Shown here: piece by piece, positions 2,662-21,668 of the stretch
Position numbering within the stretch: position 1 is the first letter of the stretch
Layout: each line of letters starts with the position of its first letter
NCBI GenBank assembly: GCA_022824105.1
Contig: JAJEAZ010000291.1
Coordinates: forward strand, 1 to 51,178
DNA from: Alphaproteobacteria bacterium
Lineage (GTDB): Bacteria; Pseudomonadota; Alphaproteobacteria; Bin95
Length of the DNA: 51,178 nt
Direction of reading: 5' to 3'
The notes under the pieces: model-generated
What the model was told of the DNA's origin: nothing
Seen by the model: the letters and a program-made list of their open reading frames with translations, nothing else
Database searches by the model: none
Made by a program: the position numbers and the translations under genes

Positions 2662-2736
2662 GGTCGGTTCCTCTCTCCTCTGAAAAAAACACCGCGTTTC
2701 CCCCGGAGCGGGGTGGGCGGCGAGTCAAGCCTGGAA

Positions 2737-3062: not shown

Positions 3063-3398
3063 TTACGCACCGGCCCGGTCGGCCAGCACTTTGGAGGCCC
3101 ACGCTGCTGCCTTGGCCAGTACGTCCCCATGACAGGGCAGCGGCTCGCACCAGCAGGCCAGCCAGCAGCCATCGAGTTCCGCCAGCTCCTCCAGCGTGAC
3201 CTCGCCAGCCTGGATGCGGCGCCAGAGTTCCGCGCGGTATTGCGCGATCGCCAGCTCCCGCGAACAGCCCGATCCGATCCGGAACGGATTGCCCCACTTG
3301 GTGCGGCGGTCGATCAGCACGGTGTTGCCGACGACCTGCGCATATTCGAACTCCTCGCGCAGCTTCGGTTCGCTTTTCAGGTTTACGATTGCGCGCAT
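3063..3398 (-). CDS. DUF4326 domain protein
   Basis: 111 aa: MRAIVNLKSE..VLIDRRTKWGNPFRIG..AIAQYRAELWRRI..LDGCWLACWCEPLPCHGDVL. This is the characteristic WGNPF and CWC..CHGD pattern. ATG at 3396-3398 (complement). Confidence 0.85.
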   Translation of the reverse strand: MRAIVNLKSEPKLREEFEYAQVVGNTVLIDRRTKWGNPFRIGSGCSRELAIAQYRAELWRRIQAGEVTLEELAELDGCWLACWCEPLPCHGDVLAKAAAWASKVLADRAGA

Positions 3399-4591
3399 CG
3401 ACTCCCTCCTCTCTTCCCGTCGGCTTGCCCGACCCTCCGCTTCTCTCTTCCTCCCCCGGACCGGGAGCCTGCTTCGGCCTGCGAGCCGGAGGTGCGAGCA
3501 TCGCGGAACAGCGGGGCGAAGCGGGCGCGGAGCGCCGCCGGGCCGAGCGCGACGAGGTCGTCGTTGAAGTCCTTGCCGACGGGCACGATGACGGTGGCGG
3601 CGACGCCGAGCTGCGCGCAGCGCATGGCGAGGCGCTCGGCCGCAAGTGCGCCGTCCTCGTCGTTGTCGCGGGCGATCACCAGCCGCGCGAGGCCGGGCGG
3701 AGGCGCGAACGCGCCGAGGCTGCCGGCCGAGAGCGCGGCCGCCGCGCGGATCTCCGGCACGGCCGTGGTGAGGGAGAGCACGGTCTCGATGCCTTCGCCG
3801 ACGACAAGCGGCGCGCCGTCGGAAGGCGCGCCGAAACGCACCGCGAGGCCGTAGATGCGGCCGAGCGCCTTGCGCGGCAGGGCGACGCCCGCCTTGGCGG
3901 GCGAGTGGGGATCGAGCCAGGTCCGCTACACGCCGAGGATCCGGCCGCCTGTCCCGGATCCCGGATCGCGTCCGGGACAGGCTCCCGATGCGGGGTCGTC
4001 GCCGGTGACGGCGGCGACCAGCGCCGGGAAGCGGCGCACCGAGGAGCCTTCGCGATAGCGAAGCTCGGGGTGGAAGCGAAGCGCCGCGAAGCGGCAGCGG
4101 GCGAGACCGCGCGCATGCAGATAGCGCTCCGCGTGGCTGCCGGCGATGGCGCGGCAGCGCCGCCACAGGCGGCGCGCCGCCTCGGTCGCGTCATAGGGCT
4201 CGTCCGGTCCGCCTGCCGGCAGGCCGCCCGGCCCGGCGGCGTGCCCCGCACGCCAGCCGGAGCCCCCCGGATCGCGATCCGGGGCGGGCGGCAGGGCAAG
4301 GAAACGCCGCGCCTCGTTGAGCGCCGCGCGCAGCGTCGGCGCGCGCGAGCGGTGGCGGATAAGGTCGAGCAGGTCGCCATGCTCGCCGGTCGCCGCATCC
4401 GTCCACTTGCCCGGCGCGCCCGGGCCGCGCAGGCGGACGAAGAGCGAGCGCCCGCGAGCGCCGTCGAGATCGCCGCAGATCCAGTAGCGGCCCTGGCGGC
4501 GGCCGTTGGGCAGATACTGCCGGCAGACCGCCTCGGCGCGCTCGCCGAGCGCGGCGGCGATGGCGGCGGCGGGCGACGGTGGGTGCTGCAT
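3383..4591 (-). pseudogene. Toprim / DUF7146 primase-like gene interrupted by an in-frame TAG
   Basis: One continuous frame. The N-terminal 221 codons (..YWICGDLDGARGRSLFVRL..GEHGDLLDLI..) end at TAG (complement of 3926-3928). The same frame resumes as RTWLDPHSPAKAGVALPRKALGRIYGLAVRFGAPSDGAPLVVGEGIETVLSL..IARDNDEDG (toprim E and DxD motifs). Confidence 0.8.
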
Positions 4592-4762
4592 GCGAGATCT
4601 CCTTCAAACCATGCGGAACGCCCGATACCGGCCGCCCTCCGCCTCCGGCCGGCGCGGATAAGCGAGCGGCCCGAGCGAAGCGCGGGCGCGGAGCCCGGAC
4701 GGTTGGAGAGAGGAAGGCCGGGGCGCGAAGCACCGGCCGGGAGTGCGGCGAGGGCGCGCCGG

Positions 4763-5845
4763 TCAGGCGCGGGACGCATCGGCGAGCTGGCCGACGCGGA
4801 TGCGGCCGGTCCAGGCGGCGGCGCGCGCGGCGGAATCGCCGTCGCGCAACTGCCGGCGCAGCTCCATCCAGAGCCGGCCCAGCACGTTGGCGCCGCGGTA
4901 GCGGTCGCCTTCCGGCCGGGCGCCCCACCAGGGGTCGCGGGTCGAGACCTCGACGATGGCGCGCTCGCCGCTCGCGGCGAGGGCGGCGTCGATCGCGGCG
5001 GCGTTGGCCTCACGCTTCATGCGCAGCACCCAGCGCATCGCGTTCACCCGCTGCTCGTTCCAGCGGGGATCGAGACCGTCGGCCGTGCCGCGCCCGATGG
5101 CGGCCGCCTCGCGCGCCGTGGGCGCGCCGGCGATCCGGCGCTGCACCGCCGGGGCGGCGCCAAACTTGCAGGCCTGGTACAGGTGCTCGGACGTCGGAAG
5201 CGTCCACGGGCCGGCGGCGATCGGCGCCGCCAGCGGCGCGAAATTGCTGAACTCGCCCCAGGCTTCCCGGGTGAACCGAAAACTGCAAACCTCGCCGCGG
5301 TTGTAGATACGCATGCCGTCATCCTCCGCTACCGGCGGCGAGCTCCCTCCGGCCCTGCCGCGCTTCGCCCCGCCGCAAGCGCCCCTCCGCTCCGGTCCAC
5401 CGGGCTCGAATACGACGATCGAGACGCCCGCGCAGGGCGCGAGGCGGTCGACCAGCAGCGAGCGGACGGCGGGCCAGGGCAGGCCGCCGAGGCCGCAGCC
5501 GAGCGGCGGGATGGCGACGGAGCCGACGGCGCGGCGGCGGAGGATGAGGGCCAGGTCGTCGAGACCGCCGGCGATGTCCTCGATCCGGCTCGGGTCGCGC
5601 CAGTGGCGCTTGGTCGGGAAGTTGACCACGAAGCGCGCCGGCCCGGCGCCGGCGTCGAAGACGAGGCAGCGCCCGGGCCGGACCGCACGGCGCGCGCAGG
5701 CGTGCCGGTAGGCCTCGTAGTTGGCGGGGAAGCGATGCCGGAACTGGAGGGCGAGCCCCCTGCCCATCACGCCGACGCAGTTGACGGGATTGACGAGGGC
5801 CTGGCAGCCCGACCCGAAGAGGTCGCCTCGGGTGAAACGGATCAT
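4763..5845 (-). CDS. Macrodomain-NADAR (DUF1768) fusion protein, predicted ADP-ribose hydrolase
   Basis: The N-terminus MIRFTRGDLFGSGCQALVNPVNCVGVMGRGLALQF..FPTKRHWRDPS..IPPLGCGLGGL is macrodomain-like. The C-terminus IYNRGEVCSFRFTREAWGEFSNFAP..TSEHLYQACKF..NVLGRLWMELR is NADAR-like. ATG 5845 follows GGGAGC. The track ORF starts 18 codons earlier. Confidence 0.85.
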   Translation of the reverse strand: MIRFTRGDLFGSGCQALVNPVNCVGVMGRGLALQFRHRFPANYEAYRHACARRAVRPGRCLVFDAGAGPARFVVNFPTKRHWRDPSRIEDIAGGLDDLALILRRRAVGSVAIPPLGCGLGGLPWPAVRSLLVDRLAPCAGVSIVVFEPGGPERRGACGGAKRGRAGGSSPPVAEDDGMRIYNRGEVCSFRFTREAWGEFSNFAPLAAPIAAGPWTLPTSEHLYQACKFGAAPAVQRRIAGAPTAREAAAIGRGTADGLDPRWNEQRVNAMRWVLRMKREANAAAIDAALAASGERAIVEVSTRDPWWGARPEGDRYRGANVLGRLWMELRRQLRDGDSAARAAAWTGRIRVGQLADASRA

Positions 5846-5895
5846 GGGCGGTGCTCCCGGTTGGAGGAAGATCGAAGTCGAAGGGCCGGCGCGGC

Positions 5896-6480
5896 TCACG
5901 GCCGGCCGGCGCCGGACGCGAGCGTGCGGAAGGTGGCGGAAACACGGACCGCGGCCTCGCTGGCGCTGTCCGCGCGGTCGATGCCGTGCATGAAGTCCCG
6001 GCGCGCCGCGCCCGCGAGGACCAGGACCGAGCGGCGGGGGAGCACGGCCACCTCATCGCCCGGCAGGCCGTCGCGGGCGTAGGGCCGGACGGAGCGCGGC
6101 CGGAAGCGCATCGGCCAGTCGGCGGCGAGCGACAGCGAGGCGACGACGTCGCCGAAGTCGCGATGGTCGGCGTGCATGCCGATGCCCTGGCCGGGGCGGT
6201 ATTCGTTGACGATGCACTGCACCGGCGTCGCGCCCCCGAAACGGTCCCGCAGCCGCTCCGCCATGACCTCGGCCCAGCGCGGGAACGGCGCGGCCGGGAC
6301 CGGGCGGCTGGCACCGCGGTAGTCGTAGCGATAGCCGTAATGCTGCACGCGCCGGCTGAGCTCGGTCATCCAGGGCGCCGCGCCGATGCGCAGCAGCAGG
6401 CGCTCCTCCTCGGCCGGGGTGACGAAATCGGGGACGATGACGGCCCCCCGGGCGAAGACGCTCTCGGTGTTGTCGCGCAT
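5896..6480 (-). CDS. AlkB-like 2OG-Fe(II) dioxygenase
   Basis: 194 aa from MRDNTESV. It contains QCIVNEYRPGQGIGMHADHRDFG (HxD), ..RRDFMHGI.. (distal His) and ..RVSATFR (2OG-binding Arg). Confidence 0.85.
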   Translation of the reverse strand: MRDNTESVFARGAVIVPDFVTPAEEERLLLRIGAAPWMTELSRRVQHYGYRYDYRGASRPVPAAPFPRWAEVMAERLRDRFGGATPVQCIVNEYRPGQGIGMHADHRDFGDVVASLSLAADWPMRFRPRSVRPYARDGLPGDEVAVLPRRSVLVLAGAARRDFMHGIDRADSASEAAVRVSATFRTLASGAGRP

Positions 6481-6580
6481 GCTCCCTCTCCCTTGGTAAC
6501 GGAACGCCCCACCGGCGCACCTCTCCGGCTCCGGCGGCGCGCAGCGGACGGGCATGGGGGGAGGGACTCCGGCAGGGCTG

Positions 6581-6616
6581 CAAAAAGAAAGGGACCGACG
6601 CCGAAACGCCGGTCCC
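6581..6616 (-). terminator. Rho-independent terminator downstream of ssb
   Basis: GGGACCG (6591-6597) pairs with CGGTCCC (6610-6616). On the minus strand the hairpin is followed by TTTCTTTTTG (complement of 6581-6590). It lies 37 nt after the ssb stop. Confidence 0.65.
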
Positions 6617-6652
6617 AGGTTAGGGGAGGGAGGAACGAGGGACGCGAAGTCC

Positions 6653-7105
6653 TCAGAACGGGATTTCGTCGTCCAGGTCGGCGGGCGCGGAAGCCGGCGC
6701 GGCGCCGGTGTCGCCCGCCATGTCCGGGTCCGGCCGCGCGCCGCCCGCCGCGTCGCGCTTGTCGAGGAATTGCACGCGCCCGCCGGGGACCAGCAGGATC
6801 TCGGTCGAGAAGCGGTCCGAGTCCTCGCCCGGCTTCTTCCAGCGCCGGGTCTGGAGCTTGCCCGCGACATAGACCAGCCGGCCCTTCACCGCGTGCTTGA
6901 CCAGCATGTCGATCAGCCCGTCCTGGAAGGTGACGATGCGGTGCCACTCGGTGCGGTCCTGCCGCTCGCCGGTCTTGGCGTCGATATACGACTCGTCGGT
7001 CGCGATCGAGAGGTTGGCGACGCGGCCGCCGCTCTGGAGGTGGTTGACGGTCACGTCGGCGCCGAGGCGGCCGATCAGTTCCGCGCGGTTCAATCCGAAG
7101 GCCAT
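6653..7105 (-). CDS. ssb: Single-stranded DNA-binding protein
   Basis: 150 aa: MAFGLNRAELIGRLGADV..ANLSIATDESY..RTEWHRIV (OB fold), a Gly/Pro/Ala tail and the acidic tip DLDDEIPF. RBS AAGGAG. Confidence 0.95.
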   Translation of the reverse strand: MAFGLNRAELIGRLGADVTVNHLQSGGRVANLSIATDESYIDAKTGERQDRTEWHRIVTFQDGLIDMLVKHAVKGRLVYVAGKLQTRRWKKPGEDSDRFSTEILLVPGGRVQFLDKRDAAGGARPDPDMAGDTGAAPASAPADLDDEIPF

Positions 7106-7217
7106 GGGAAATCTCCTTCATGGGGTCTGGATGATGACGATGGGTTGCGAACGACCGGAAGCCGGGACACCCTCCCGAACCCCCGACCGTTCAATCTCTC
7201 CAAGCCCTCCTCCACCT

Positions 7218-7457
7218 CTAATCGGCCGGGGAGAGCGACGGTGCCGGGTCCCAGGGTTCCGCCGGCTCCGCCATGCCCGGCGCCGGGACCGGGAAGAGGT
7301 CCGCGAAGCGCCGTTCGGGAAACAGCGCCGCACGCTCCGGACAGCGCATGGCGCGGGCGTCTTCGGCGAGCTCGCGCACGAGGCCGGGACGGATCCCCAG
7401 TTCGGCCAGCAGGTCGGAACCCTGCGGGGGACCGAGGCGATAATCGGAAAACGGCAT
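7218..7457 (-). CDS. Hypothetical small protein (79 aa)
   Basis: ATG 7457 is preceded by GAGGAGGA. Translation: MPFSDYRLGPPQGSDLLAELGIRPGLVRELAEDARAMRCPERAALF.. No domain recognised. Confidence 0.55.
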   Translation of the reverse strand: MPFSDYRLGPPQGSDLLAELGIRPGLVRELAEDARAMRCPERAALFPERRFADLFPVPAPGMAEPAEPWDPAPSLSPAD

Positions 7458-7541
7458 GGACGGATCCTCCTCTGCCCGGCCCGGCATCGGCGCGGCGGGA
7501 CCCACTCCCTCCACCCTGCCGGACACTCGCCCGGCACCCGC

Positions 7542-8090
7542 TCACTCCCGACTCCCGGAGACCGACCGGGACCGGCGGATATCCCGCAGCCGCTCGCACA
7601 CCGCCCGCGGCGCCATCGCTCCGAGGTTCAGCACCGGGATGCCGCGGGACTCGGCGATGCGGATGCCCATGCCCGTGCCCCCGACCGGCTCGCCGCGTTC
7701 CGACCAGCACACGACCGCATCGACGGGCCCGTCCAACTGCTCGCCCAGCAGGATCGCGACATTCCGGGCATGCAGCTTCCGGACGGCCGGCGAACACCGC
7801 TCCCACGCCGGATGCAGGGGCGCCGCGATCTCCATGCACGCCGCCATCGCCGCCGCCGACAGCACCCGGCGGTCCGGCCCCCGGTGCCCGTTATAGCCCC
7901 GCCACGGCAGCCAGACCGTCCGCTGCTCCGCCGGCGCTCCCGCCGCGAACGCCGCATCGGCTCCGTCCGCGCCGCCGGAAGACAGATGCCAGCCGGTCCG
8001 CGCCAGCCAGCCCGCCATCACGGTCATGTCCGCCAGCACGGCCGCCGGTGTCGCCCGCGCCCCGATCCCCGCATATTGCAAAGTCGCCAT
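7542..8090 (-). CDS. DprA/Smf-like SLOG Rossmann-domain protein
   Basis: 182 aa from MATLQYAGIGARATPAAVLADMTVMAGWLARTGWHLSSGGADGADAAFAAG..VCWSERGEPVGGTGMGIRIAESRGIPVLNL. RBS GGGGAG. Confidence 0.75.
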   Translation of the reverse strand: MATLQYAGIGARATPAAVLADMTVMAGWLARTGWHLSSGGADGADAAFAAGAPAEQRTVWLPWRGYNGHRGPDRRVLSAAAMAACMEIAAPLHPAWERCSPAVRKLHARNVAILLGEQLDGPVDAVVCWSERGEPVGGTGMGIRIAESRGIPVLNLGAMAPRAVCERLRDIRRSRSVSGSRE

Positions 8091-8227
8091 GTTCGATCTC
8101 CCCGGTAGCGACTGCCGCGACTCCCTCTCCGTCAACGGCTTCGCTCCCGGACCGCTTCTCTCCACCTCCCTGCATGGAAGGACCGGCCCCGCTTGCATTG
8201 CCGCGCTGTCCGGGGCATCGGTGCGGC

Positions 8228-9422: not shown

Positions 9423-10286
9423 CTATCGGCGTCGTCTCTTGGTGGGCCACGGTAGGACACCGTCCAGCTCTCGAAGGAGCGGTTCCTCGTCTTCCGTATC
9501 GCTCGTGTCATGTAGGAGGGGCGGGGCTTCTTCATCCTCGAACCATAGAAGCGTAAGTGTCTGATCCCACGCCCTCAGATATCGCGCTTCTTCCAGGACC
9601 TCCCCGCCCCGGCGCCAATCGCTGAACCAAACATCGGCGGCCACCTCGTCCGGCCCTGCCTCTTTGCCACCTGCGCGTAATCTGGCCGATAGGGTTTCAC
9701 GCGGAACCTCCCTCCTGGGTGGGATCCAGCCGCCCGCTTCGCGTAGCGACTTCGACCGGGAGGCGTATCTCACTACCCCTTTTTGGGAGAGAATAAACGC
9801 GCATGGCGCATCCATCACAAACGCATAGCGCGAACCTGTGGCGGTCGTTGACGCCAGGAAACGGTGTGCAAGTTCGTCGATTGCGGAGAACCCGATCTGC
9901 TCCTCTCGCACCAGGGGTTCGAATAACTGTTTGGGCAACAGCAGCTCAGCAGCGAACACGTCACAGAGAATCTCGTTCTTGGGGCGGCTGGCATAGCTCC
10001 ACCAGGGCATCGCCGAATGCTCGGACGGCAGGCCCAGGACGATGTGCGCGACCTCGTGGCAGGCTGTGAACCGCTGGCGTTCCTCACTGTCCTTTTCGTT
10101 TACGCAAATGAAGTGCTTGCCGTTGCTCTCGAACGAATATCCGGGCTCGTCGTCAGGCAGGTCCGGTTCGTAACGCAAGACCCCGCCAATGTGCCTCACA
10201 TAAGCCTCGACGGCGGGCGGCAGCCCGGAGGAATCGGTTTCGCGGACGAAGTTCCGCGCGCGAAGGACAGCCGAGAATTCATCCAT
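9423..10286 (-). CDS. ImmA/IrrE-family zinc metallopeptidase (CapP-like)
   Basis: 287 aa from MDEFSAVLRARNF. HEXXH is present as FTACHEVAHIVLG, followed by ..NEILCDVFAAELLLP. ATG 10286 overlaps the upstream HTH gene stop (ATGGATGA). Confidence 0.9.
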   Translation of the reverse strand: MDEFSAVLRARNFVRETDSSGLPPAVEAYVRHIGGVLRYEPDLPDDEPGYSFESNGKHFICVNEKDSEERQRFTACHEVAHIVLGLPSEHSAMPWWSYASRPKNEILCDVFAAELLLPKQLFEPLVREEQIGFSAIDELAHRFLASTTATGSRYAFVMDAPCAFILSQKGVVRYASRSKSLREAGGWIPPRREVPRETLSARLRAGGKEAGPDEVAADVWFSDWRRGGEVLEEARYLRAWDQTLTLLWFEDEEAPPLLHDTSDTEDEEPLLRELDGVLPWPTKRRRR

Positions 10287-10671
10287 CGCCGTTCTCTTCC
10301 GACAGAATCCTGCGGACCCTTGCCAGCAGCTGCGCGTAGTTGGGCCGCGCGCTGCCGCGGAATGCTGCGCCCGCCGTGGCTGCGAATACCTCATAAGTCA
10401 CGGTCGGATCGTTCAACACCTCGACAACCAGATCCTGCGCGGTCTCGGGGTGGGCCGCGAGGAAACGAAGCATTTCGGCTTCGCGCCGGTCCGCTTTCAG
10501 CGCACGGATGAGCTTGACCAGCACGTCCTCTGACGGCGCTACCTTTTCCGCTTGCTCGAGGCGGTGGATGTAGGCGTGGTCCGTTTGAGCGAGCTGGCCG
10601 AGCTCCCGCAGCGACAGGCCCCGTCGCTCCCGCAGCAACTGTAGGAGAAACCCCAGCCCGTTTTTTTTCAT
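10279..10671 (-). CDS. XRE-family HTH regulator (CapH-like)
   Basis: 130 aa: MKKNGLGFLLQLLRERRGLSLRELGQLAQTDHAYIHRLEQAEKVAPSEDVLVKLIRAL. It is translationally coupled to the peptidase gene and divergent from the Ubl operon. Confidence 0.9.
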   Translation of the reverse strand: MKKNGLGFLLQLLRERRGLSLRELGQLAQTDHAYIHRLEQAEKVAPSEDVLVKLIRALKADRREAEMLRFLAAHPETAQDLVVEVLNDPTVTYEVFAATAGAAFRGSARPNYAQLLARVRRILSEENGDG

Positions 10672-10707
10672 GGCCGCCCCATTGACATCAGTCGTCCATC
10701 TCCCTAC

Positions 10708-10802
10708 CTGTTGTCTGAACAAGCAACAGTGCCCCAAATCATGGTCACTGGCTGGGTTCTGCCGTTGAGCATGCTCAACTCCTTGTTGTCGTCATAGACA
10801 AC
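10708..10802. promoter_or_regulatory. Divergent promoter/operator region with three palindromic elements
   Basis: CTGTTG..CAACAG at 10708-10729. A perfect 16-bp palindrome GTTGAGCATGCTCAAC at 10764-10779. GTTGTC-gtcata-GACAAC at 10785-10802. The region lies between the HTH gene (start 10671) and the Ubl gene (start 10876). Confidence 0.45.
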
Positions 10803-10875
10803 CGGATGGTGGATGGCAACGGGCGAGCGCGCAAGCCTGCGGCCGGATTTTGGGCCTCACAACAGAGGACCTGCT

Positions 10876-11415
10876 ATGTCCACGAATCAACTGGAGATCT
10901 TTGTCCACCAGCACGGCGAGCGCCCGCAGGTGGTAACTATCGAAGCCGAGGTGACACTTCGCGCTCTTCTGTCCCAACACGGTGTCGAGGTCGAAGGAAC
11001 CGGTGAAATCTTGGTGTTCGTCGGTGAATGCGAAGACGCGCTCAAGGCGCCCGAAGGCGTCGAAAATGGCGCGGACGCTCACGTTCCTGCCGATCTGGAC
11101 CTTACCCTCGGCGACCTCGATCTGGAAAAGCACCGCCACATCCACTGCCACCGTTGTCGGGAAGTCGACACAACCATCCTCTTCGCCGGCAAGGCGCTGA
11201 ATCGCAAGTTTTCGCCGGCGACCACCGTTGAGGTGGCAACGCGATGGGCTCGCATGAATCTGCGCATGGATGGGGCGGCGGAATCGGAATTCGTTCTTCG
11301 ACTCTCCGGTACGGGGGAACAGCCGCGCCCGAATCAGCACCTGGGCGAACTCGTCCAAGACGGCGAGTGCGAGCTGTACTTCGAAGTCGTCAAGGAAATG
11401 ACACCGCAGGGCTAG
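10876..11415 (+). CDS. Ubiquitin-like protein with two predicted beta-grasp units, ending in Gly (BilA position)
   Basis: 179 aa, with RBS AGAGGA 6 nt before ATG 10876. Translation: NQLEIFVHQHGERPQVVTIEAEVTLRALL.. and ..TTILFAGKALNRKFSPATTVEVATRWA..ECELYFEVVKEMTPQG, then TAG. It is the first gene of a Ubl-E2-JAB-E1 operon. Confidence 0.75.
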   Translation: MSTNQLEIFVHQHGERPQVVTIEAEVTLRALLSQHGVEVEGTGEILVFVGECEDALKAPEGVENGADAHVPADLDLTLGDLDLEKHRHIHCHRCREVDTTILFAGKALNRKFSPATTVEVATRWARMNLRMDGAAESEFVLRLSGTGEQPRPNQHLGELVQDGECELYFEVVKEMTPQG

Positions 11416-11419: not shown

Positions 11420-11890
11420 ATGAAGTCGCCGTCACAGCGCCTCTTCGAAGCCGATCTTCGGTCTGCCGAGTTCCGCAGCGGGGTCCTGAAGGGATATTGG
11501 GAGGTCGCTGCGCAGGACTGGCCGCAGGTGGTGCTCTGGATCCGTGCCGCCTCCCGACAGGGGGCACCCGACGGATACCACGTTGCGCTTGACCTGGAGG
11601 GTTACCGTGCTGCAGCGCCGACGGGCACGTTTTGGGATCCAGCAACCGGGACCATGCTTGACGCCGCCAATCGACCGAAAGGCAAAGCGAACAGTCGCTT
11701 CGCCAAGGTATTCCGGACCGATTGGGAAGAGCGGGCATTCTATCATCCGTATGATCGCCACGCCGCGGACAGCCACCCCGACTGGCGAGTCCAGCAACCG
11801 CACCTCGTCTGGACATCGGATCACACCATCGTCGACTACCTGGAGGAATTCCATTCCCTCCTGAATTCGGATCACTACGTTGGCGTGTGA
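11420..11890 (+). CDS. E2/UBC-like protein without any cysteine (BilB position)
   Basis: 156 aa. E2-like landmarks are YRAAAPTGTFWDP (compare YPxxPPxxxF), FYHPY (compare HPN) and W..TIVDYLEEFHSLL (compare WSP..ti..vl.si.sLL). The translation contains no Cys. Ser118 sits 9 residues after His109. Confidence 0.65.
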   Translation: MKSPSQRLFEADLRSAEFRSGVLKGYWEVAAQDWPQVVLWIRAASRQGAPDGYHVALDLEGYRAAAPTGTFWDPATGTMLDAANRPKGKANSRFAKVFRTDWEERAFYHPYDRHAADSHPDWRVQQPHLVWTSDHTIVDYLEEFHSLLNSDHYVGV

Positions 11891-12377
11891 ACCCGCTGTG
11901 GAAAGACTCTCCCTGTCCGTCTGGCTGTGGGCTCGCCTGCTCGGCGACCTGAGACGCCGGGGGGAAAGGAGGCGCGAAAGCGGCGCGTTTCTTCTCGGTC
12001 GCAGCGCCGGCGGACGCGGTCGCGTAACGACCTACCTGTGCTACGACGACCTTGACCCGGATGCGCTCAAGACCGGCGCCATCACCTTTCATGCGAAAGG
12101 CTATGCCGCGCTCTCGCAGGCCTGCCGCGAGAAGGCACTTGAGGTGCTCGCGGATGTGCATACCCATCCCGGTCGCTGGGTCGAGCAAAGCTCGATCGAT
12201 CGGCGAAACCCAATGTTGCCGATAGTCCACCACACGGCCCTCATCGTGCCTTGCTACGGACGGGCTTCGCGTTGGTCGCTTAAGGGTGTCGGCGTCTACG
12301 AGTATCTCGGCGACTTTCAGTGGGCGACGCACAACTGTGTCGGCAGGCCGAAACGCGTTTCCCTCAGCCTTTGGTGA
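11880..12377 (+). CDS. JAB/JAMM metallopeptidase (BilC position)
   Basis: RRESGAFLLG (Glu) and ADVHTHPGRWVEQSSIDRRN (HxH..S..D) are present. The start is TTG 11880 (overlapping the E2 end) or GTG 11898. Confidence 0.9.
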   Translation: MACEPAVERLSLSVWLWARLLGDLRRRGERRRESGAFLLGRSAGGRGRVTTYLCYDDLDPDALKTGAITFHAKGYAALSQACREKALEVLADVHTHPGRWVEQSSIDRRNPMLPIVHHTALIVPCYGRASRWSLKGVGVYEYLGDFQWATHNCVGRPKRVSLSLW

Positions 12378-12382
12378 TAGGC

Positions 12383-13786
12383 ATGAACGACCAAAACCCC
12401 AATCTCTCGCGGATATCGAAGCTGTTCGCCGACAGGGATTCGCTTCCGACCTGGGACGGGCTCAGGAAACGGCGGCAATTCGGGGTGACGCTCGTTTGCG
12501 GTGCCGATGTGGCGGGATCCTACATGCTGCAACTCTCCGTGCTCACCGCCGCGAAGATTGCCACCCGCTGCTTTCCCCATGCCGTGCGCATCGCACTGCC
12601 TGCCCAGGTCGAAGAAGCCGCCACGTTACTCTGGCCGGGAATGAGGGATCGCCTCCCCTTCGGTGCCATGCTCCGTCAAATCGTGGGCGCTGAAAATGTC
12701 GTTGCCGACCGGAGCGATCTGGATCGCAGCAACGTGCTTATGTTCGGCGATGCGCCGGAGACCGCCGGTGCGTTGCGCGTGACCTTCGACGGATGGGTCG
12801 CGATGACGGGTCCAGCATCTCAGGTGGTCCGGCTGCCAGAACGTCCATACTGTTCGCTGGCCGCCGTCCTCTCGGCGGCATTGGCGGTCTCGGAACTGTT
12901 CCTGTCGTTCGCGGAGATTTCCGTGGAAGCAAGGCGGCGCACCGTGACGCTGTCCCTCTGGCGGCCTGAGCTTGATCCTGCCGATCCCGCTGCAATTGGT
13001 CCGGTTGTCGGGTGGTTGCCGGCCGATCTCTGGGTCCTGGGTCTCGGACACCTGGGCAACGCCTACCTGTGGGCGCTGGCGACGTTGCCCTACTCGACTC
13101 CATGTGAGGTCCGGTTCTTCCTGAACGACTTTGATACGGTAGAAGACGAGAACGTCGAAACGGGCCTGCTCTTCAGCGGAGCAGATATAGATCGCTCCAA
13201 GGCGCGGACCTGCGCCGCCTGGCTGGAACGCCGAGGACTTCAGACCCGTTTGTTCGAACGCCGTTTCGACAAGCACTTTCGTTGTCAGCACGATGAACCA
13301 AGGCTCGCGCTATGCGGATTCGATTCGAACCCTTCCCGCCGCGAGCTTGCCTCGGCAGATTTCGTGCAAGTGGTCGAAAGCGGGCTCGGAGGTACATCGA
13401 ACAACTTCGACACGTTGAGCCTTCACGCTCTGCCGAATCCCCGCAGCGTTCATGATCTCTGGCCGGATCTGTCCGACGAAGAGGAAGAGAGGCGCCAAGC
13501 CCAACAGGAGCGTGTTGCGGAAGGGAATGAGGCATATGCTCGCTCCGGGCTTGACGAATGCGGCCGGTTTGAGTTCGCCGGGAAATCCATCGCCGTTCCA
13601 TTTGTGGGAGCGGTCGCGGGCTGCTTTGTTGTCGCCGAAACGCTCCGCCTATTCCACGAGGGTCCGGCCTATACCGATATCAAGTTGCGTCTGGGAGGCC
13701 CCAAACCGCAATGCGCGCCGCGAAGTGGCCGGTACGGAGTGGAGGATACTCCCGCTCACAAGGCCACAGCCGCGCTGTCGCTGTAG
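12383..13786 (+). CDS. E1-like (ThiF/MoeB/UBA family) activating enzyme with an N-terminal degenerate and a C-terminal active adenylation domain (BilD position)
   Basis: 467 aa from MNDQNPNL. The degenerate N-terminal fold contains VCGADVAGS. The active fold contains VLGLGHLGNAYLWAL, FLNDFDTVEDENVETGLLF, DIDRSKA and CGFDSNPSRR. A charged helical insert contains DECGRF. ATG 12383 is 5 nt after the JAB stop. Confidence 0.9.
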   Translation: MNDQNPNLSRISKLFADRDSLPTWDGLRKRRQFGVTLVCGADVAGSYMLQLSVLTAAKIATRCFPHAVRIALPAQVEEAATLLWPGMRDRLPFGAMLRQIVGAENVVADRSDLDRSNVLMFGDAPETAGALRVTFDGWVAMTGPASQVVRLPERPYCSLAAVLSAALAVSELFLSFAEISVEARRRTVTLSLWRPELDPADPAAIGPVVGWLPADLWVLGLGHLGNAYLWALATLPYSTPCEVRFFLNDFDTVEDENVETGLLFSGADIDRSKARTCAAWLERRGLQTRLFERRFDKHFRCQHDEPRLALCGFDSNPSRRELASADFVQVVESGLGGTSNNFDTLSLHALPNPRSVHDLWPDLSDEEEERRQAQQERVAEGNEAYARSGLDECGRFEFAGKSIAVPFVGAVAGCFVVAETLRLFHEGPAYTDIKLRLGGPKPQCAPRSGRYGVEDTPAHKATAALSL

Positions 13787-13924: not shown

Positions 13925-14953
13925 TCACGGTCGCGAAGCCGGCGGGGAAGCGAGATTCACTTCGGTCTCCAGAGACCGGATGCGCTCGACGAGCGCCCCG
14001 AACTCCGGCGCGCCATCGCCGACGATGTGGGCGCGGCGCATGGCGTCGTAGTCCGATTGCAGGGCGGGGAGCTGGTCGTCGTCGGGGACGAGACGCAGCC
14101 GGCCGTCGAGGCAGCGGTCGTAGTTGGCGTTGCCGGCATGGAAGAACACCCTTTTGTGCCGGACGACGTCCGCCAGGAGTTCGCGGTCCGCCAGTGCGGC
14201 CCGGCCGACAGGGTGGGCGGCGAGGCAGGCGAGGTCGAACCAGTGGCGGGAGAGCCGGCCGGGCTTGTTCGCAAGCTGCCGGCGATGGCATGCGACATGG
14301 ATGAGCGTCGCCTTCTCCCAGAAGGTGCGTGCCGGCGAGAGGACGGTAACGGTCGCGGCAGGATAATCGAGCCCATCGGTCAGGGCGGCGATATCCGGAA
14401 CGATCGTGTGGCGCTCGTTCGGGTCGATGACGTTGCGACCGCCGAACTCCAGAAGGACCTCGCTTGCGACATAGCTGTCCGGCGCCTCGACCGCGGACGG
14501 ATAGGCGAAGCGGACGGTCTCGCCGTCTTCGCCGACATGGATGGCGTAGCGGCCGTCGGCGCCAAGGCGTCGGGCGGCGTCATCGAGGGCGGGTGCGACG
14601 ACATTGCGGACATGGCGTGCGACGCGGTCCTTGAGACGTTCGCCGAACCGCTTGGTCGCGGTACGGCTGGCGCCCTTGGCGAAGGGGTCGAAGCCGTCGT
14701 CGAAGGCGTGGTAGTCGAGGGTGATGTCCACGTCCTCGGAGAACCGGTCGATGATTCGATAGACCTTCGAGAGCGAGGTGCCGCCCTTGAAAGCCATCGG
14801 ATGGGGGTCGGGCATGGAGAAGAGGGCCTGCAGAACCCAGCAAACCCAGATGTCCTTCTCCAGGATGACGGCTGAGCGCCGGGCGTCGCCGGCCGCGGTC
14901 CGGAGGATATCGGCGCGCTCGCCGGCGCCGAGGGAGAGGAACGGCTCAGCCAT
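13925..14953 (-). CDS. abiEii: AbiEii/AbiGii-family nucleotidyltransferase toxin (DUF1814)
   Basis: 342 aa: ..AVILEKDIWVCWVLQALFSMPDPHPMAFKGGTSLSKVYRIIDRFSEDVDITLDY.. ATG 14953 overlaps the AbiEi stop (ATGGCTGA). Confidence 0.9.
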   Translation of the reverse strand: MAEPFLSLGAGERADILRTAAGDARRSAVILEKDIWVCWVLQALFSMPDPHPMAFKGGTSLSKVYRIIDRFSEDVDITLDYHAFDDGFDPFAKGASRTATKRFGERLKDRVARHVRNVVAPALDDAARRLGADGRYAIHVGEDGETVRFAYPSAVEAPDSYVASEVLLEFGGRNVIDPNERHTIVPDIAALTDGLDYPAATVTVLSPARTFWEKATLIHVACHRRQLANKPGRLSRHWFDLACLAAHPVGRAALADRELLADVVRHKRVFFHAGNANYDRCLDGRLRLVPDDDQLPALQSDYDAMRRAHIVGDGAPEFGALVERIRSLETEVNLASPPASRP

Positions 14954-15548
14954 GGGCCGGCTCCTCGACGGCGGCGAACGCCTTCTGCATCCAGGCCGGC
15001 ATGTCGGCGGAGCGCAGCTTCTCGAACTCCGACGGGCCGAGCGCGGCTTCGATGGTGGCGACGGTCTCCGGCGTTACGTTGTCCTTGCCGAGATACCACA
15101 GCGCGGAGATCGCGGCGCCGGTCGGCTCGCCCGCGAATTGCAGCCGGCGGCGGTTTGCGGTGTGGACCATGCGCACGGCAACGCCGGCGACCCGGATCGT
15201 GCGGGTCGAGCCGCTGGTATGGAACACGGGCGCGGTCGGCACCTGGGTGCTCAGCCTGAATCGCCTCGCGGCTTCGGCGCCGTGGATCTGGAGCGTCTCG
15301 CCATTGTTGCGCGCGATGGCCTCGACCACTTCGTGGAGGTCGGGCATGACGGTCCCGACAAACCGGTTGGTCCTCGGACGGACGAAGACGCCGTGGGCGA
15401 GACGCCGGATCTCGCCGTCTGCGGCGAGGCGGGAAAGGGTCCGGTCGACGGCGCCGCGGGTGCCGTGCTTCAGGAAACGGGCGCCGGTGAAGGGCCTGCC
15501 CCGGGGCAGCTTCCTTATGGCGGCTCGAACGGCTTTCGCAGTAGACAT
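14946..15548 (-). CDS. abiEi: AbiEi-type antitoxin / transcriptional regulator
   Basis: 200 aa from MSTAKAVRAAIRKLPRGRPFTGARFLKHGTRGAVDRTLSRLAADGEIRRLAHGVFVRP (winged-helix N-terminus). It is coupled to the NTase gene. Confidence 0.8.
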   Translation of the reverse strand: MSTAKAVRAAIRKLPRGRPFTGARFLKHGTRGAVDRTLSRLAADGEIRRLAHGVFVRPRTNRFVGTVMPDLHEVVEAIARNNGETLQIHGAEAARRFRLSTQVPTAPVFHTSGSTRTIRVAGVAVRMVHTANRRRLQFAGEPTGAAISALWYLGKDNVTPETVATIEAALGPSEFEKLRSADMPAWMQKAFAAVEEPAHG

Positions 15549-15563
15549 GGAATGACCCTTCTG

Positions 15564-15592
15564 TGTCCAAAAATATAGCGGTATTTTGGACA
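15564..15592. promoter_or_regulatory. Inverted repeat in the abiE promoter (candidate AbiEi operator)
   Basis: TGTCCAAAAATA (15564-15575) and TATTTTGGACA (15582-15592) form a near-perfect IR with a one-base bulge. It sits in an AT-rich patch 16 nt upstream of the abiEi ATG. Confidence 0.5.
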
Positions 15593-15626
15593 ATTTCAAG
15601 GAGCGGTGTTGGACCTCAGGGGCGGG

Positions 15627-15987: not shown

Positions 15988-18900
15988 TCACGCGGCGAGC
16001 GGCCAGCGGTCGAGGAGGCGCTCGACCGTCTCCGGGTTGGGCGCGAACACGCGGGTGCGCCAGGAAACGATCTCGGTCGCGCAGCCCATGCGCTTCAGCG
16101 CGGCCATGTCGGTGTCCGCCGGTCCTTCGATCTCGACCCTGTTGCCGCCCATGAGCCGCCGGCGCGCGAGCCGCCAGCCATTGGCGAGGGCGAGCGCGTT
16201 GCCCCGCTCCATGACTGCCGCGAAGGCTTCCGCGCCGGTCATGGCGGGACCGCCGTCGAGCCCGAACCCGGCGCGCACCGACTGCACCTGCTCGGCGTCG
16301 AGCACCCGCCCGATGAGCGCGATGCCGTCGTCGCTGGTGAGGCGGCGGACCCGCATGTTCTCGGCCGGCAGGCGGTCCCAGACCGGCAGCAGCAGGCCGG
16401 AGGCGAGCCAGAAGCGGGACTCGCGGTGGCTCGGCAGCTCGCCGATCTCGTGGTCCCAGAGCATGCGCCAGTGCCGCTCGTCGGTGCGCCCCCAGTTGGA
16501 GGCGACGAACTCGGCTTGCGCCATGCGGTCCCGGGTAGCGGGCCGGATCAGCTGCACGCGCTTCTGCACCCCACCATCGTCCAGCATGCGCGACGGCGCG
16601 GGCAGCAGAACAGCGGCGCGCTTGGAGCGCGTGTTGACGACCAGCCGCGGCTTCCCGTCCGGACCGGGATCGCGCGCGCCGATCTCAAGCGCCGCGTCGG
16701 CGGCCAGCGGCACCAGCTTGTCGCGGCGGACGATCTCGACCAGCTCGGTCGCCGCCCCGGTGCCGGGATGCTCGTACAGCGTCTCCCGGCCGGCGACAAC
16801 GAGCGAGTCGGCAAGGACCGTCTCGACCCCCACCTCGTAGCTGCCGGCCTCAATGGCCTGCTCGATATTGGCGGCGATGCGCTCTTCCAACTCGGCGAAG
16901 AGCTGGTTTTGCTCGGCGATGGGCAGCGCCAGCAGCCGGTTGAGGAACTTCGGCATGGGCGGCAGCTCGTCCTTGAGCCCGCCCTCATGAACGATCTTGA
17001 GGCCGGTCGAGTCCTGGAACCGTTCGGCGTTCCAGCCCTCGATGCGGCCCCGCCAGAGGGCGCTGTAGAACTGCCGCAATGCCGCTTTGGCATAGGCGGA
17101 TTCGAGGTTGTCGCTCTCGCGGAACAGCGCGGCGTCGCTGCCGCCCATGGCGGTCTGGCTGTCGCGCTGGCCGCGGGTGATGGCGCCCAGGCTGTCGAGC
17201 CGCCGTGCGATGGTCGCGATGAAGCGGCGCTCGCCCTTGACGTCCGTGGTCACGGGCCGGAACAGCGGCGCGGAAGCCTGGTGCGTCCGGTGGGTGCGGC
17301 CCAGTCCCTGGATCGCCTGGTCGGCGCGCCAGCCGGGCTCCAGCAGATAGTGGATGCGCCGCTCGGTGTTGGCGCAGGACAGATCTGCGTGATAGCTCCT
17401 GCCGGTCCCGCCGGCCATGGAGAACACTAGGATGCGCTTTTCGGCGTCCATGAACGCGGCGGTCTCGGCGAGATTGGCCGAGGCGGGCCGGCTGCGGAGC
17501 GAGAGACGCTCACCTTTGGCATCCTTTATACGCAGCACCCGCCGCGAGCGCCCGGTGACTTCGGCGACGGCCTCGTGCCCGAACTTCTGCACGATCTGGT
17601 CCAATGCCGTCGGCACCGGCGGGAGCGCCGCGAGCTTCTCGATCAGCGCGTCGCGCTGTTCCTCCGCCTCCTTGCAGGTGATGGGGTTGCCGTCGGCGTC
17701 GGTCGCCGGCCGACTCATCAGGTTGCCGTCGTCGTCGGTGAACGGCTCCTGCAACTGCACCGGAAATGCGTGCATCAGGAACGACAGGATGCCGTCCCGC
17801 GGGGTGAGGTCGATGTTGAGGTCGTCCCACTCCGAGGCCGGGATCTCGGCGATGCGCCGCTCCATCAGCGCTTCGCCGGTCGAGACCAGCTGCACCACCG
17901 CCGAGCGCCCGGCGTCGAGGTCGGCCTCGACGGCGCGGATCAGGCTGGGGCATTTCATGCCGGTCAGCAGATGGCCGAAGAAGCGCTGCTTGGTGCCCTC
18001 GAAGGCCGACAGGGCTGCCGATTTCGCCCTCTTGTTCAGCGTATCCTCGCCCTGGACGATGCCGGTCGCCTCGAGGGCGGCCTCGATGTTGGCGTGGATG
18101 ACCTTGAAGGCGCCGGCATAGGCGTCGTAGATGCGGCGCTGCTCGGGCGAGAGCGGATGTTCGAGGATGTCGACCTCCACCCCGTCATAGGCCAGGGCCC
18201 TGGCCTGGTAGAGCCCGAGCGCCTTCAGATCGCGCGCCACCACTTCCATTGCAGCCACCCCGCCGGCCTCCATGGCGGAGACGAACTCGACGCGCTTCTC
18301 GAACGGCGTCTCGCTGGCGCCCCACAGGCCGAGCCTCCCGGCGTAGGCAAGGCCGGGCACGGTGGTGGCGCCGGTGGCGGAGACATAGGCGATGCGCGCA
18401 TCGGGCAGCGCGTTCTGTAGGCGCAGGCCCGCGCGCCCCTGCTGGGACGGCTTGGTCTCGCCGCGCTCGGACTTCGACCCCGCCGCGTTGGCCATGGCAT
18501 GCGCCTCGTCGAACACGATCACGCCGTCGAAGGCATGACGGTCCTCCTCGTCGAGCGAACCGGCAAGCCATTCCACGATCTGGTCGAGGCGCGACGGCTT
18601 CCCTTGCCGGGACGGCGAGCGCAGCGTGGCGTAGGTCGCGAACAGGATGCCCTCGTCGAGCGGGATCTCCATGCCCTGCCGGAAGTTGCCCAATGGGATG
18701 ACGTCGCTCTCCAGCCCGCCCAGTGCGGTCCAGTCGCGGCGCGCGTCCTCCAGCAGCTTGTCGGACTGCGACAGCCAGAGGGCCCTCTTCCGTCCGCGCA
18801 TCCGGTTGTCGAGGATGATGGCGGCGACCTGGCGGCCCTTGCCGCAGCCGGTGCCGTCGCCCAGCATCCAGCCACGCCGGAACCTCACCGGCTCCGAAAG

Positions 18901-20532
18901 CGTCTCGCCGTCCTGTGTGACGAAGGAGGTGTCGATTTCTTCCCCGTCCTCACCGTTTTCAGGGCAGCGGTGGACAGTCTCCCAGCCGGAGCCGATGCGG
19001 TACTGCGCCGCCAGGTGCCGGTTATGGGCCTCGCCCGCCAGCACGAGGCTCTCCAGTTGGGCGTCGGACAGCAGGCCGTCGGCGACCACCCGCTCGGGAA
19101 GCATAGGCCGCCAGGCCGGTGCCGGATGCGGCACGGCGGCCATGGCGGCGGATTGCACCAGCGGCGTCGGATGCGCGACCGCCCCCGGCACCCGCACCGC
19201 GCCCGGCCGCCAGGAGGCGTAGGGGCCGGTGTCGTTGGCGGCCGACGTTTCGGCATCGGTGGCAACCGGCTCCATTGGCCCGGTCTCGACGGCCAGTTCC
19301 GAAACCGGCCCCCAGTCATGGGCCTGCCTCGTTTCGGGGGTGGATGCGGGTTTCGGACCGCGCCGCTTGGCGGGTGCCGGCGCGACGGCCTTGCCGAACA
19401 GGTCGCGCGCGGGTCCGGCCGGCGCGGCCGGCGCGGCAATCGGCACGGTCTCGACCGGCAGCCGGAGAGGAACCCGCGCGATGACGGCATCGAGCAGCTC
19501 GGCGGCATCGGCGGCGCGGGCTTCCCGATCGACAGCAACGTCCGGCTCCGCACTGCGCTCCAGCACGGTGAGGCGGGTGTCGAAGCCGGTGCCCCGCCTG
19601 GCATAGGCCCGCCCGTCGATCGCCATGGTGAAGATGCAGCGCGCCGGCGGGCCGCTCGGGCCGTGCCCGTCGAGGCGGGCGAAGGCGGCGGTCCAGGCGG
19701 CGTCGCCGGGGACGCAGTGGGCCGAGGTGATGGCGACCAGCCGCCCGCCCGGCGGCAGCATCGAGACGGCCGAGCGGACATGGCGCAGGTCGGCGTCGTG
19801 GCGGATGCGGTCGACCCCGGGCGTCGCCGAGAACGGCGGGTTCATCAGCACGACCGTCGGCCGGACGTCCCGCAGCCGGTCGGCGATCGCCTCGGCGTCG
19901 AACGCGGTCACGACGGCCTGCGGAAACAGCTGCGTCAGCAGCCGCGCCCTGACGCGAGCGTATTCGTTGAGATGGAGATGGCCGGCGGCTCTGCTGCCTA
20001 GCGCGCATTCCGCCACGACGGCCAGCATGCCGGTGCCGGCCGAGGGCTCCAGCACGGTGTCGCCCGGCCGGACTGCGGCGGCCTGAAGCGCGGCATAGGC
20101 GAGCGGCAGCGGTGTCGAGAACTGCTGGAGCCGGACCTGCACCTCGGATCGCCTGGTATGCGAGGGCTCCAATGCGGCGAGCGCCTCCAGCATCGCCAGC
20201 ATGCGGCGCGGCCCGCCGTCACCGGCGTTGCGGCGCATGCCCCGGCCATAGCGCTGCATGAAGATCACGACGGCGGCTTCGGCGGCCTCATAGGCGTCCT
20301 TCCAGATCCAGCCGCCCTCGGAGTCCGACGACCCCAAGGCCTCCGTCATCGCCTCGCGGAGGGTCGCGGCATCGAGGGGCTGTCCGGCCTCCAGCACCGG
20401 CAGCAGGGTCCGGGCTGCGGCGAACAGGGTGTCGCCGGCCACCGGACGGGCCGACGCTGCGGGTGGGTCGATGGGGACGGCGGGAGGAAGAGGACGCGCG
20501 AAGGCGTCCGGCGCCTGCGGGGCGTCGAGCAT
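15988..20532 (-). CDS. Giant N6-adenine methyltransferase / strawberry-notch-like SF2 helicase fusion
   Basis: 1514 aa. MTase motifs are VLEPSAGTGMLAV and VVLMNPPFS. Helicase motifs are GDGTGCGKGRQ (Walker A), VIVFDEAHAM (DEAH) and later ..FSMAGGTGRSYHAD.., ..GLGRTHRTHQ. Confidence 0.9.
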   Translation of the reverse strand: MLDAPQAPDAFARPLPPAVPIDPPAASARPVAGDTLFAAARTLLPVLEAGQPLDAATLREAMTEALGSSDSEGGWIWKDAYEAAEAAVVIFMQRYGRGMRRNAGDGGPRRMLAMLEALAALEPSHTRRSEVQVRLQQFSTPLPLAYAALQAAAVRPGDTVLEPSAGTGMLAVVAECALGSRAAGHLHLNEYARVRARLLTQLFPQAVVTAFDAEAIADRLRDVRPTVVLMNPPFSATPGVDRIRHDADLRHVRSAVSMLPPGGRLVAITSAHCVPGDAAWTAAFARLDGHGPSGPPARCIFTMAIDGRAYARRGTGFDTRLTVLERSAEPDVAVDREARAADAAELLDAVIARVPLRLPVETVPIAAPAAPAGPARDLFGKAVAPAPAKRRGPKPASTPETRQAHDWGPVSELAVETGPMEPVATDAETSAANDTGPYASWRPGAVRVPGAVAHPTPLVQSAAMAAVPHPAPAWRPMLPERVVADGLLSDAQLESLVLAGEAHNRHLAAQYRIGSGWETVHRCPENGEDGEEIDTSFVTQDGETLSEPVRFRRGWMLGDGTGCGKGRQVAAIILDNRMRGRKRALWLSQSDKLLEDARRDWTALGGLESDVIPLGNFRQGMEIPLDEGILFATYATLRSPSRQGKPSRLDQIVEWLAGSLDEEDRHAFDGVIVFDEAHAMANAAGSKSERGETKPSQQGRAGLRLQNALPDARIAYVSATGATTVPGLAYAGRLGLWGASETPFEKRVEFVSAMEAGGVAAMEVVARDLKALGLYQARALAYDGVEVDILEHPLSPEQRRIYDAYAGAFKVIHANIEAALEATGIVQGEDTLNKRAKSAALSAFEGTKQRFFGHLLTGMKCPSLIRAVEADLDAGRSAVVQLVSTGEALMERRIAEIPASEWDDLNIDLTPRDGILSFLMHAFPVQLQEPFTDDDGNLMSRPATDADGNPITCKEAEEQRDALIEKLAALPPVPTALDQIVQKFGHEAVAEVTGRSRRVLRIKDAKGERLSLRSRPASANLAETAAFMDAEKRILVFSMAGGTGRSYHADLSCANTERRIHYLLEPGWRADQAIQGLGRTHRTHQASAPLFRPVTTDVKGERRFIATIARRLDSLGAITRGQRDSQTAMGGSDAALFRESDNLESAYAKAALRQFYSALWRGRIEGWNAERFQDSTGLKIVHEGGLKDELPPMPKFLNRLLALPIAEQNQLFAELEERIAANIEQAIEAGSYEVGVETVLADSLVVAGRETLYEHPGTGAATELVEIVRRDKLVPLAADAALEIGARDPGPDGKPRLVVNTRSKRAAVLLPAPSRMLDDGGVQKRVQLIRPATRDRMAQAEFVASNWGRTDERHWRMLWDHEIGELPSHRESRFWLASGLLLPVWDRLPAENMRVRRLTSDDGIALIGRVLDAEQVQSVRAGFGLDGGPAMTGAEAFAAVMERGNALALANGWRLARRRLMGGNRVEIEGPADTDMAALKRMGCATEIVSWRTRVFAPNPETVERLLDRWPLAA

Positions 20533-21604: not shown

Positions 21605-21668
21605 AGCGGTCGGTTCCGGTGTCGGGTGGATCGGGGTGGGCGGCGGGCGCGGGGCGTCCCCGCCGAGT

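Follow-up and report, generated by a model that had tools for sequence, protein, structure and literature searches.

Cascades of the ubiquitin type are defined by the relay of a thioester from an activating enzyme (E1) to a conjugating enzyme (E2), and the literature on the bacterial Bil (BilABCD) systems, five of which defended Escherichia coli (Millman 2022, Table S2 sequences), assumes the same relay. In the type I system of Collimonas sp. OK412, the ubiquitin-like protein (Ubl) BilA is conjugated to the phage central tail fibre, the E1 forms a Ubl adduct that is sensitive to dithiothreitol and depends on C385, and the substitution C113A in the E2, BilB, leads to loss of defence; a Ubl~E2 thioester was undetected even in this cysteine-type system (Hör et al.). 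The E2 cysteine has been called highly conserved across both Bil types (PMC10557695). Here we describe a bil operon in which BilB, a protein of 156 aa encoded at positions 11420 to 11890, contains no cysteine at all. The operon lies in a 51,178-nt window, the whole stretch of DNA that was analyzed, represented by contig JAJEAZ010000291.1 of an Alphaproteobacteria bacterium (GCA_022824105.1).

The open reading frame (ORF) almost certainly encodes the BilB of a type I BilABCD system, an anti-phage system of ubiquitin-like conjugation that is intact here and regulated by CapH/CapP, and it falls in a large subclade with tyrosine at the position of the cysteine; the locus itself is a typical representative of an established kind of defence. 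PADLOC models match all four Bil proteins (Table 1), bearing out the Bil gene order with a JAMM peptidase that a first-pass annotation had read from the letters of the window. The four plus-strand ORFs abut or overlap (bilB and the start of bilC share 11 nt) and run from Ubl through E2 and JAB peptidase to E1, an order that recurs in 40+ related loci, and the E2-like product is assigned to DUF7665, which carries the label "BilB-like" in the tables of genes for homologous loci. The single feature of type I Bil systems found to be missing is the equivalent of Collimonas C113, where the window BilB has Tyr111.

The likely true start of bilA is the ATG at 10876 (Met22); BilA gives a full-length match to the 162-position PADLOC model, and the homologues' gene carries Pfam BilA_UBL_2, both of which lend indirect support to the two tandem beta-grasp domains (ISG15-like) that a type I Ubl would have. 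The protein ends in ..EMTPQG directly before the stop (final Gly codon, 11410-11412), so that the C-terminal glycine is already exposed, and the ..TPQG terminus occurs in 40 of 48 related loci. The metal site of BilC is intact (H94-x-H96...S-x-x-D107; HTHPGRWVEQSSID from residue 94), and the JAMM motif was found in 48 of 49 related loci. In BilD (likely start, ATG 12383; residues numbered here from the GTG start), the cysteine that the annotation had placed in ..GLDECGRF.. is Cys414 (TGC, 13559-13561); it aligns (LDECG) with the experimentally validated C385 of Collimonas BilD (IDACG), and 40 of the 41 partner E1s have Cys at this point. The sole E1 of the 41 with another residue is that of L009 (Alphaproteobacteria metagenome-assembled genome [MAG] CBDDDJ010000004.1), which has Trp (DEWGR), a single-base change from TGC/TGT to TGG that may be a long-read error or the mark of an inactivated copy.

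Absence of Cysteine and the Active-Site Position

The bilB ORF begins with ATG, and its translation confirms the complete absence of cysteine first reported. The three neighbouring operon proteins contain 2.0-3.0% cysteine (20 residues in 853 aa), a content that gives P ~0.025 for zero cysteines in 156 aa; by composition the absence is therefore only mildly unusual. It is shared by 53 of the 120 closest homologues (59-87% identity), the others having one to three cysteines at scattered positions, and a conserved active-site cysteine is likewise missing from the orthologues, the alignment of these 120 sequences containing no conserved-cysteine column. Because the cysteine-less state is so widespread among them, it represents a stable lineage property and not a sequencing error or a pseudogene.

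A decayed or inactive E2 in a non-functional operon, or an error of assembly, is very improbable. Some related loci are visibly damaged: an IS66-family transposase lies at or within bilD in L004, L005, and L013 (Vicinamibacterales MAG), where the system copy has probably been disrupted by the insertion and BilB is intact, and the E1 of L007 is truncated. Against decay in the window stand its four intact genes with their catalytic motifs, a confident structural model, an active-site motif common to 119 of the 120 homologues and to many phyla, and the protection demonstrated experimentally for a 42%-identical system with the same YHPYDR motif.

The AlphaFold2 (AF2) model of BilB, built on 55 homologues, has a predicted local distance difference test score (pLDDT) of 91.5 and a predicted template-modeling score (pTM) of 0.86. 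Its best Foldseek matches in the PDB are to the type II BilB E2 of Ensifer aridi (8tyz_C/8tz0_C; probability 1.0, E 5.8e-4, template-modeling score [TM] 0.51-0.58), and the next are to the eukaryotic E2s Ube2W, UBE2F, and UbcH7; the confident model and these matches together indicate that BilB is UBC-like, as had been proposed. PDB sequence searches with BilB, BilD, and the clade profile returned no match, and a profile of the broader BilB family returned one weak partial match (8tyz_C, E 1.1) with the active site outside it. The mapping of residues between type I and type II BilB rests on a statement in Chambers et al. and not on an alignment of our own.

Type II BilB (8TYZ/8TZ0) is thus the best structural match and has the same operon order and a conserved histidine after the catalytic position, but it has no usable sequence similarity to the window BilB and carries a Cys138/Glu144/His146/His151 (CEHH) motif that is absent there; its Ubl has a single beta-grasp domain. 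Membership of the type II (CEHH / 6C) group was rejected on the lack of a Cys/CEHH motif and of a significant sequence match to 8TYZ chain C.

The UBC-like landmarks listed in the annotation are all present and coincide with conserved family blocks: PTGTF (residues 67-71), FYHPYDR (107-113), and IVDYLEEFHSLL. The annotation had placed Ser118 where the catalytic cysteine is expected, and the codon is AGC at 11771-11773, as it had stated. In the family alignment, the cysteine column falls elsewhere: Tyr111 of the window (TAT, 11750-11752; ..FYHPY111DRHAADSH119..) aligns with C113 of Collimonas BilB (..LYIPC113DRISIQGH..). Of the 120 close homologues, 119 have Tyr in this column, as do 45 of 48 related loci, the genome loci having been gathered with the clade alignment and so being biased to Tyr-type BilB; the 43 loci of the window clade belong to Alphaproteobacteria, Acidobacteriota, Paraburkholderia, Methylomonas, and others. 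A lone Phe variant in the clade (P0023), from a 6x long-read contig, was rejected as proof that the tyrosine hydroxyl is dispensable, since its coverage is low and the eight other members of its cluster carry Tyr without exception.

The Ser118 column, in contrast, is not invariant: it holds Ser in 53, Gly in 53, and Asp in 8 of the 120 homologues, and G, T, S, or D family-wide, the invariant residue being His119 (CAC, 11774-11776), which directly follows it. The location of Ser118 at the catalytic site has one alignment in its favour, an hhalign comparison of the BilB family with four canonical E2s, which sets YHP-Y opposite YHP-N and Ser118 opposite UbcH5B Cys85; this comparison spans 103 columns at a low-confidence probability of 15%, too weak to rely on, and a comparison with a single E2 aligned only helix 2 (BilB W131 to UbcH5B W93, probability 6%). 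The four-E2 alignment reproduces the motif reasoning of the annotation and, if right, makes the BilB Cys/Tyr position the counterpart of the asparagine of HPN, beside the catalytic cysteine of canonical E2s. Under either alignment Ser118 is unconserved and so cannot be the nucleophile, and a serine oxyester of the Bub kind at this residue is hardly credible.

In Bub, a tyrosine on the E1 crossover loop and an invariant E2 serine, accompanied by His (+Asp or Lys), act as nucleophiles; its genes occur as fusions (BubAB/BubCD or BubBD), always together with the DUF6527 serine protease BubE (Ye et al. 2024). Like the window system, it is a cascade without an E2 cysteine, and it includes a Tyr-linked oxyester intermediate (Ye et al. 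2024 preprint). Kinship with Bub did not hold, however, and membership of the Bub (6E / DUF6527) group was rejected: no serine is invariant across the E2 family, the window E1 retains Cys414, in a helical insert, in place of the crossover-loop tyrosine nucleophile, the genes are separate, and Pfam and PADLOC scans detected no DUF6527 protein among the four operon genes or in both flanks.

Tested Systems and the Family-Wide Pattern

The C113 column in the five protective systems is Cys in Collimonas and Cupriavidus, Tyr in Paraburkholderia caffeinilytica CF1, and Trp in Caulobacter and Thiomonas. Three of the five are therefore protective in E. coli without this cysteine, one of them (CF1) with YHPYDR, and the cysteine is in practice no defining feature of the family. 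The CF1 system (construct Ub12, Millman et al. 2022) has the same four-gene order as the window, a BilA with the ..TPQG end, and an E1 with ..ADECGR..; its BilB is 42% identical to the window BilB (E 3e-41), shares the G-F-Y-H-P-Y-D-R...H..W stretch, and has no cysteine at the active-site column, differing in two C-terminal cysteines, 158 and 164, that have no counterpart in the window protein. The Collimonas system (Millman 2022; Hör et al. 2023/2024) shares the operon, the family models, the E1 cysteine (C385 = window C414), and the Y-x-P-x-D-R...H..W frame of BilB; it differs at the column itself (Cys113, in IPCDR, versus Tyr111), and the two BilBs are 30% identical.

When 1.84 billion representative proteins were searched with a profile, 366 BilB family clusters emerged, of which the best 150 were aligned and 135 cover the site; these representatives are the ones nearest to a profile built from the Tyr clade, which biases the cysteine-less share upward. 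The family frame is [LF]-Y-x-P-X-D-R-x-A-x3-H-x2-W, X being the only conserved column that is rich in cysteine. Among the 135, X (the column of Tyr111) is C in 45, Y in 32, F in 20, W in 14, L in 9, M in 5, V in 5, I in 3, H in 1, and T in 1; Ala, Gly, and Ser were never seen. At least 90 of the 366 clusters thus have no cysteine at this column (90 of the 135 nearest clusters, defined at 50% identity), and taken with the three protective systems this removes the annotation's view that such an E2 would be unusual for a Bil operon. In the BilABCD / Bil system literature that was covered, which does not extend to Hör et al. as finally published in Nature, we found no discussion of a cysteine-less BilB.

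The residues Y108, P110, D112, R113, H119, W122, and W131 are near-invariant in the cysteine and non-cysteine groups alike, which places the pocket under selection with or without a nucleophile, and at least 16 switches between the two states were counted on a crude neighbor-joining tree. In these alignments the cysteine position in type I BilB is evolutionarily labile, an aromatic or aliphatic residue occupying it in much of the family, while the surrounding pocket is invariant; such strong conservation around the former cysteine site suggests catalysis rather than mere binding.

BilBs of the Leu, Phe, or Val type sit in complete operons (L052, L053, and L055). Motif search recovered both the E1 cysteine and the JAMM motif in L053 and in L052, the latter on a 103x circular contig; L055 has an E1 with ..LDQCG.. 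and a JAMM signature in an uncalled frame. The bilA ORF of L052 (Leu-type) ends in ..GGGGGHVE-stop, that is, with a three-residue tail after the glycine, unlike the window BilA, which ends in Gly; the tail would need processing by the JAB peptidase.

About 11 of the 150 representatives are BilA-BilB fusions of 300-355 aa (P0122, P0127, P0128, P0166, P0175, P0222, P0227, P0241, P0247, P0255, and P0269). In P0122, ...EQTPQG continues straight into the BilB domain, an arrangement reminiscent of the BubAB fusions, which depend on cleavage by a JAB peptidase.

Proposed Routes of BilA Transfer with a BilB That Lacks a Thiol

The annotation had offered two readings, an oxyester relay and a non-catalytic adaptor; both are still live, without Ser118 as the oxyester residue. 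We tentatively put first, at a little under an even chance, a version of the second, in which BilB needs no thioester of its own and serves as a non-covalent platform for discharge of the E1~BilA thioester to the target; the direct step from E1 to target is the inferred part of the model. The operon genes and motifs, the absence of cysteine, and the evolutionary pattern from which it starts are observed in the sequences compared here. CapH and CapP would restrain the operon until damage or phage is sensed. BilD would then adenylate the C-terminal Gly200 of BilA and form a thioester on Cys414, an E1~Ubl thioester having been shown by others for a homologous system. Having no thiol, BilB would form no covalent BilB~BilA intermediate; its UBC fold would dock on E1~BilA, and its pocket (Y108, P110, the aromatic residue 111, D112, R113, H119, and W122) would position the thioester and the target lysine. 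BilA could thus pass from the E1 cysteine straight to the target by aminolysis, with BilB as specificity factor and non-covalent catalyst, similar to an E3 or UEV protein, and BilC (JAMM) would edit or reverse the conjugates.

Cysteine-less UBC-fold proteins (the UEV proteins Mms2 and Uev1a, and RWD domains) act by positioning their partners, and in the archaeal SAMP/UbaA system conjugation is E2-independent, the Ubl being transferred to lysines by the E1 only. The UEV and RWD proteins resemble the window BilB in having a UBC fold without a catalytic cysteine; these and SAMP/UbaA are, however, not homologous subfamilies. BilB bears no particular resemblance to the UEV or RWD families, its strongly conserved pocket speaks against simple inactivity, and in the Foldseek ranking the entries that come after type II BilB are active E2s instead of UEVs.

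The non-covalent model is favoured by the presence of non-nucleophilic residues at the site in intact and validated systems (with Leu, Phe, or Val at column 111, no ester is possible at that position), by the near-constancy of the residues lining the pocket, by the many switches between cysteine and non-cysteine states, by the retention of the E1 cysteine, the C-terminal glycine of the Ubl, and the JAMM site, by the absence of any observed Ubl~E2 thioester even for cysteine-type Collimonas, and by the ambiguity of C113A between loss of a nucleophile and loss of bulk. On the last point, the residue set at the column includes no Ala, Gly, or Ser, so the loss of defence in C113A is no proof of nucleophilic use; since Ala never occurs at this position, the substitution cannot separate loss of the nucleophile from loss of a bulky hydrophobic residue.

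Several observations weigh against this model. Tyrosine is near-invariant in the window clade (119/120), which fits a required hydroxyl as well as packing, and a tyrosine oxyester has a precedent in the Bub E1 (Ye et al. 2024). Type II BilB uses its cysteine: C138A abolishes conjugates, and a structure with an E1-E2 disulfide has been obtained (Chambers et al.). The choice of representatives nearest to the Tyr-clade profile also inflates the cysteine-less fraction on which the model draws.

The first two of these points lead to the main rival, a mixed thioester-to-oxyester relay, possible but in our view less likely than not, in which the phenolic oxygen of Tyr111 in BilB would accept BilA from Cys414 of BilD as an aryl ester and hand it on to the target lysine, with the help of His119 and/or His109 and of Asp112. 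Tyr111 stands exactly at the catalytic-cysteine column and is conserved in close homologues and related loci as described above; His119 is invariant, and His109, invariant in the clade, is enriched in non-cysteine BilBs (35/90, against 2/45 of the cysteine types). The Bub E1 provides a demonstrated case of a Ubl~Tyr oxyester (Ye et al. 2024), and a system of the YHPYDR type defends E. coli (Millman 2022). Related BilBs, however, have Phe, Trp, Leu, Met, Val, or Ile at the column in intact operons and in two validated systems, so a covalent intermediate at this site is no requirement of the family, and His109 also occurs beside Phe, Met, and Leu (HPF 7, HPM 4, HPL 2). To our knowledge, no E2 tyrosyl ester has been reported.

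Another side chain as covalent acceptor (Tyr108, Thr68, or Lys87 or, in other subclades, a cysteine at the Leu59 column) seems quite improbable. Tyr108 is Tyr in 133 of 135 representatives, with or without the cysteine, but it matches the structural tyrosine of the canonical YHPN motif in the hhalign comparison (probability 15%), and no precedent is known for such an acceptor. Where strand 3 ends, the Leu59 column holds Cys in 33 of the 135 representatives, in both cysteine-type and non-cysteine-type BilBs; the validated Trp-type BilBs of Caulobacter sp. Root343 and Thiomonas sp. FB-6 have this cysteine, in L-[VI]-C-D-G-[FY]-P. It could provide an alternative thiol in some subclades, whereas Leu, Ala, or Val takes its place in the window clade, the window protein included.

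Genomic Setting and Significance

The window is a defence island, bringing together CapH/CapP and CBASS (Table 1), AbiE, and DruA, a setting in which the bil operon would protect against phage by conjugating BilA to a phage structural protein; defence by cysteine-less Bil systems has been shown by others on homologues. A CapH/CapP pair also adjoins the bil genes of close homologues, upstream; in the window, the listed capP ORF overlaps capH, and its probable real start is an internal Met near 10286. The GC content of the bil operon is 0.62, against 0.67 for the whole window, and the operon had no match in a plasmid collection.

Table 1. Bil genes, their regulators, and the CBASS genes of the window
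Feature	Position	Strand	Assignment or support
capP-like M78/IrrE metallopeptidase regulator	9423..10394	-	Pfam Peptidase_M78 7.9e-14; PADLOC capP 4e-55
capH-like XRE helix-turn-helix repressor, divergent from bil operon	10279..10737	-	Pfam HTH_31 1.4e-13; PADLOC capH 3.5e-12
bilA, Ubl	10813..11415	+	PADLOC BilA 2.9e-37 over residues 26-200
bilB, UBC-fold E2-like, 156 aa, zero Cys	11420..11890	+	Pfam PF24702 (DUF7665/BilB-like) 1.5e-37; PADLOC BilB 8.8e-53
BilB active-site stretch Y108-H109-P110-Y111-D112-R113...H119...W122	11741..11785	+	Alignments of 120 homologues, 150 representatives, and 5 tested BilBs
bilC, JAB/JAMM peptidase	11880..12377	+	PADLOC BilC 5.3e-56; Pfam Prok-JAB
bilD, E1	12320..13786	+	PADLOC BilD 3.5e-128
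Fused HTH-M78 regulator	43727-44965	-	CBASS
Phospholipase effector	45156-46295		CBASS
CD-NTase	46292-47356		CBASS
Cap2 E2-E1 fusion	47349-49184		CBASS; PADLOC E1-E2 2.9e-204; Pfam Prok-E2_B + ThiF

A second ubiquitin-like machinery is encoded at 43727-49184, as part of a type II cyclic oligonucleotide-based antiphage signaling system (CBASS). Immediately downstream of bilD, the minus strand carries a toxin-antitoxin pair (13925-15599) made up of AbiEii (toxin; Pfam 1.8e-41) and AbiEi/DUF6088 (antitoxin). The region 31560-41346 may be a Druantia-like system; in it, a DruA-like protein (PADLOC DruA 2.1e-127) precedes an AAA/SspF-like ATPase (33617-35221) and several large ORFs without assignment, among them one at 36550-41346 that encodes 1598 aa. 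Cargo in the style of mobile elements occupies 1456-8198 and 15988-23678 and includes a YspA/SLOG protein, a 2OG-Fe(II) oxygenase, an ORF similar to single-stranded DNA-binding proteins (6653-7105), a RadC-like JAB protein, and a 1514-aa helicase of the Strawberry-notch type (AAA_34 + Helicase_C_4). At the locus of one close homologue (L001), a TrwC relaxase is located nearby.

The locus thus joins a known type of system to a mechanistic puzzle, namely how cysteine-less Bil systems attach their tag. Systems without the E2 cysteine are already known to protect cells, and the participation of a thiol-free "E2" of UBC fold in a working conjugation cascade is a widespread and apparently undiscussed feature. 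For annotation, the lack of a catalytic cysteine is no ground for dismissing BilB-like genes as inactive. If the non-covalent reading is true, a UBC-fold protein promotes Ubl transfer with no covalent intermediate, the E1 discharging directly and the E2 acting in the manner of an E3; if instead the tyrosine relay is true, some E2s use tyrosine as nucleophile, in a mixed-chemistry cascade that is so far undescribed. Either of the two, if true, would change the view of bacterial, and of ancestral, ubiquitin-like conjugation.

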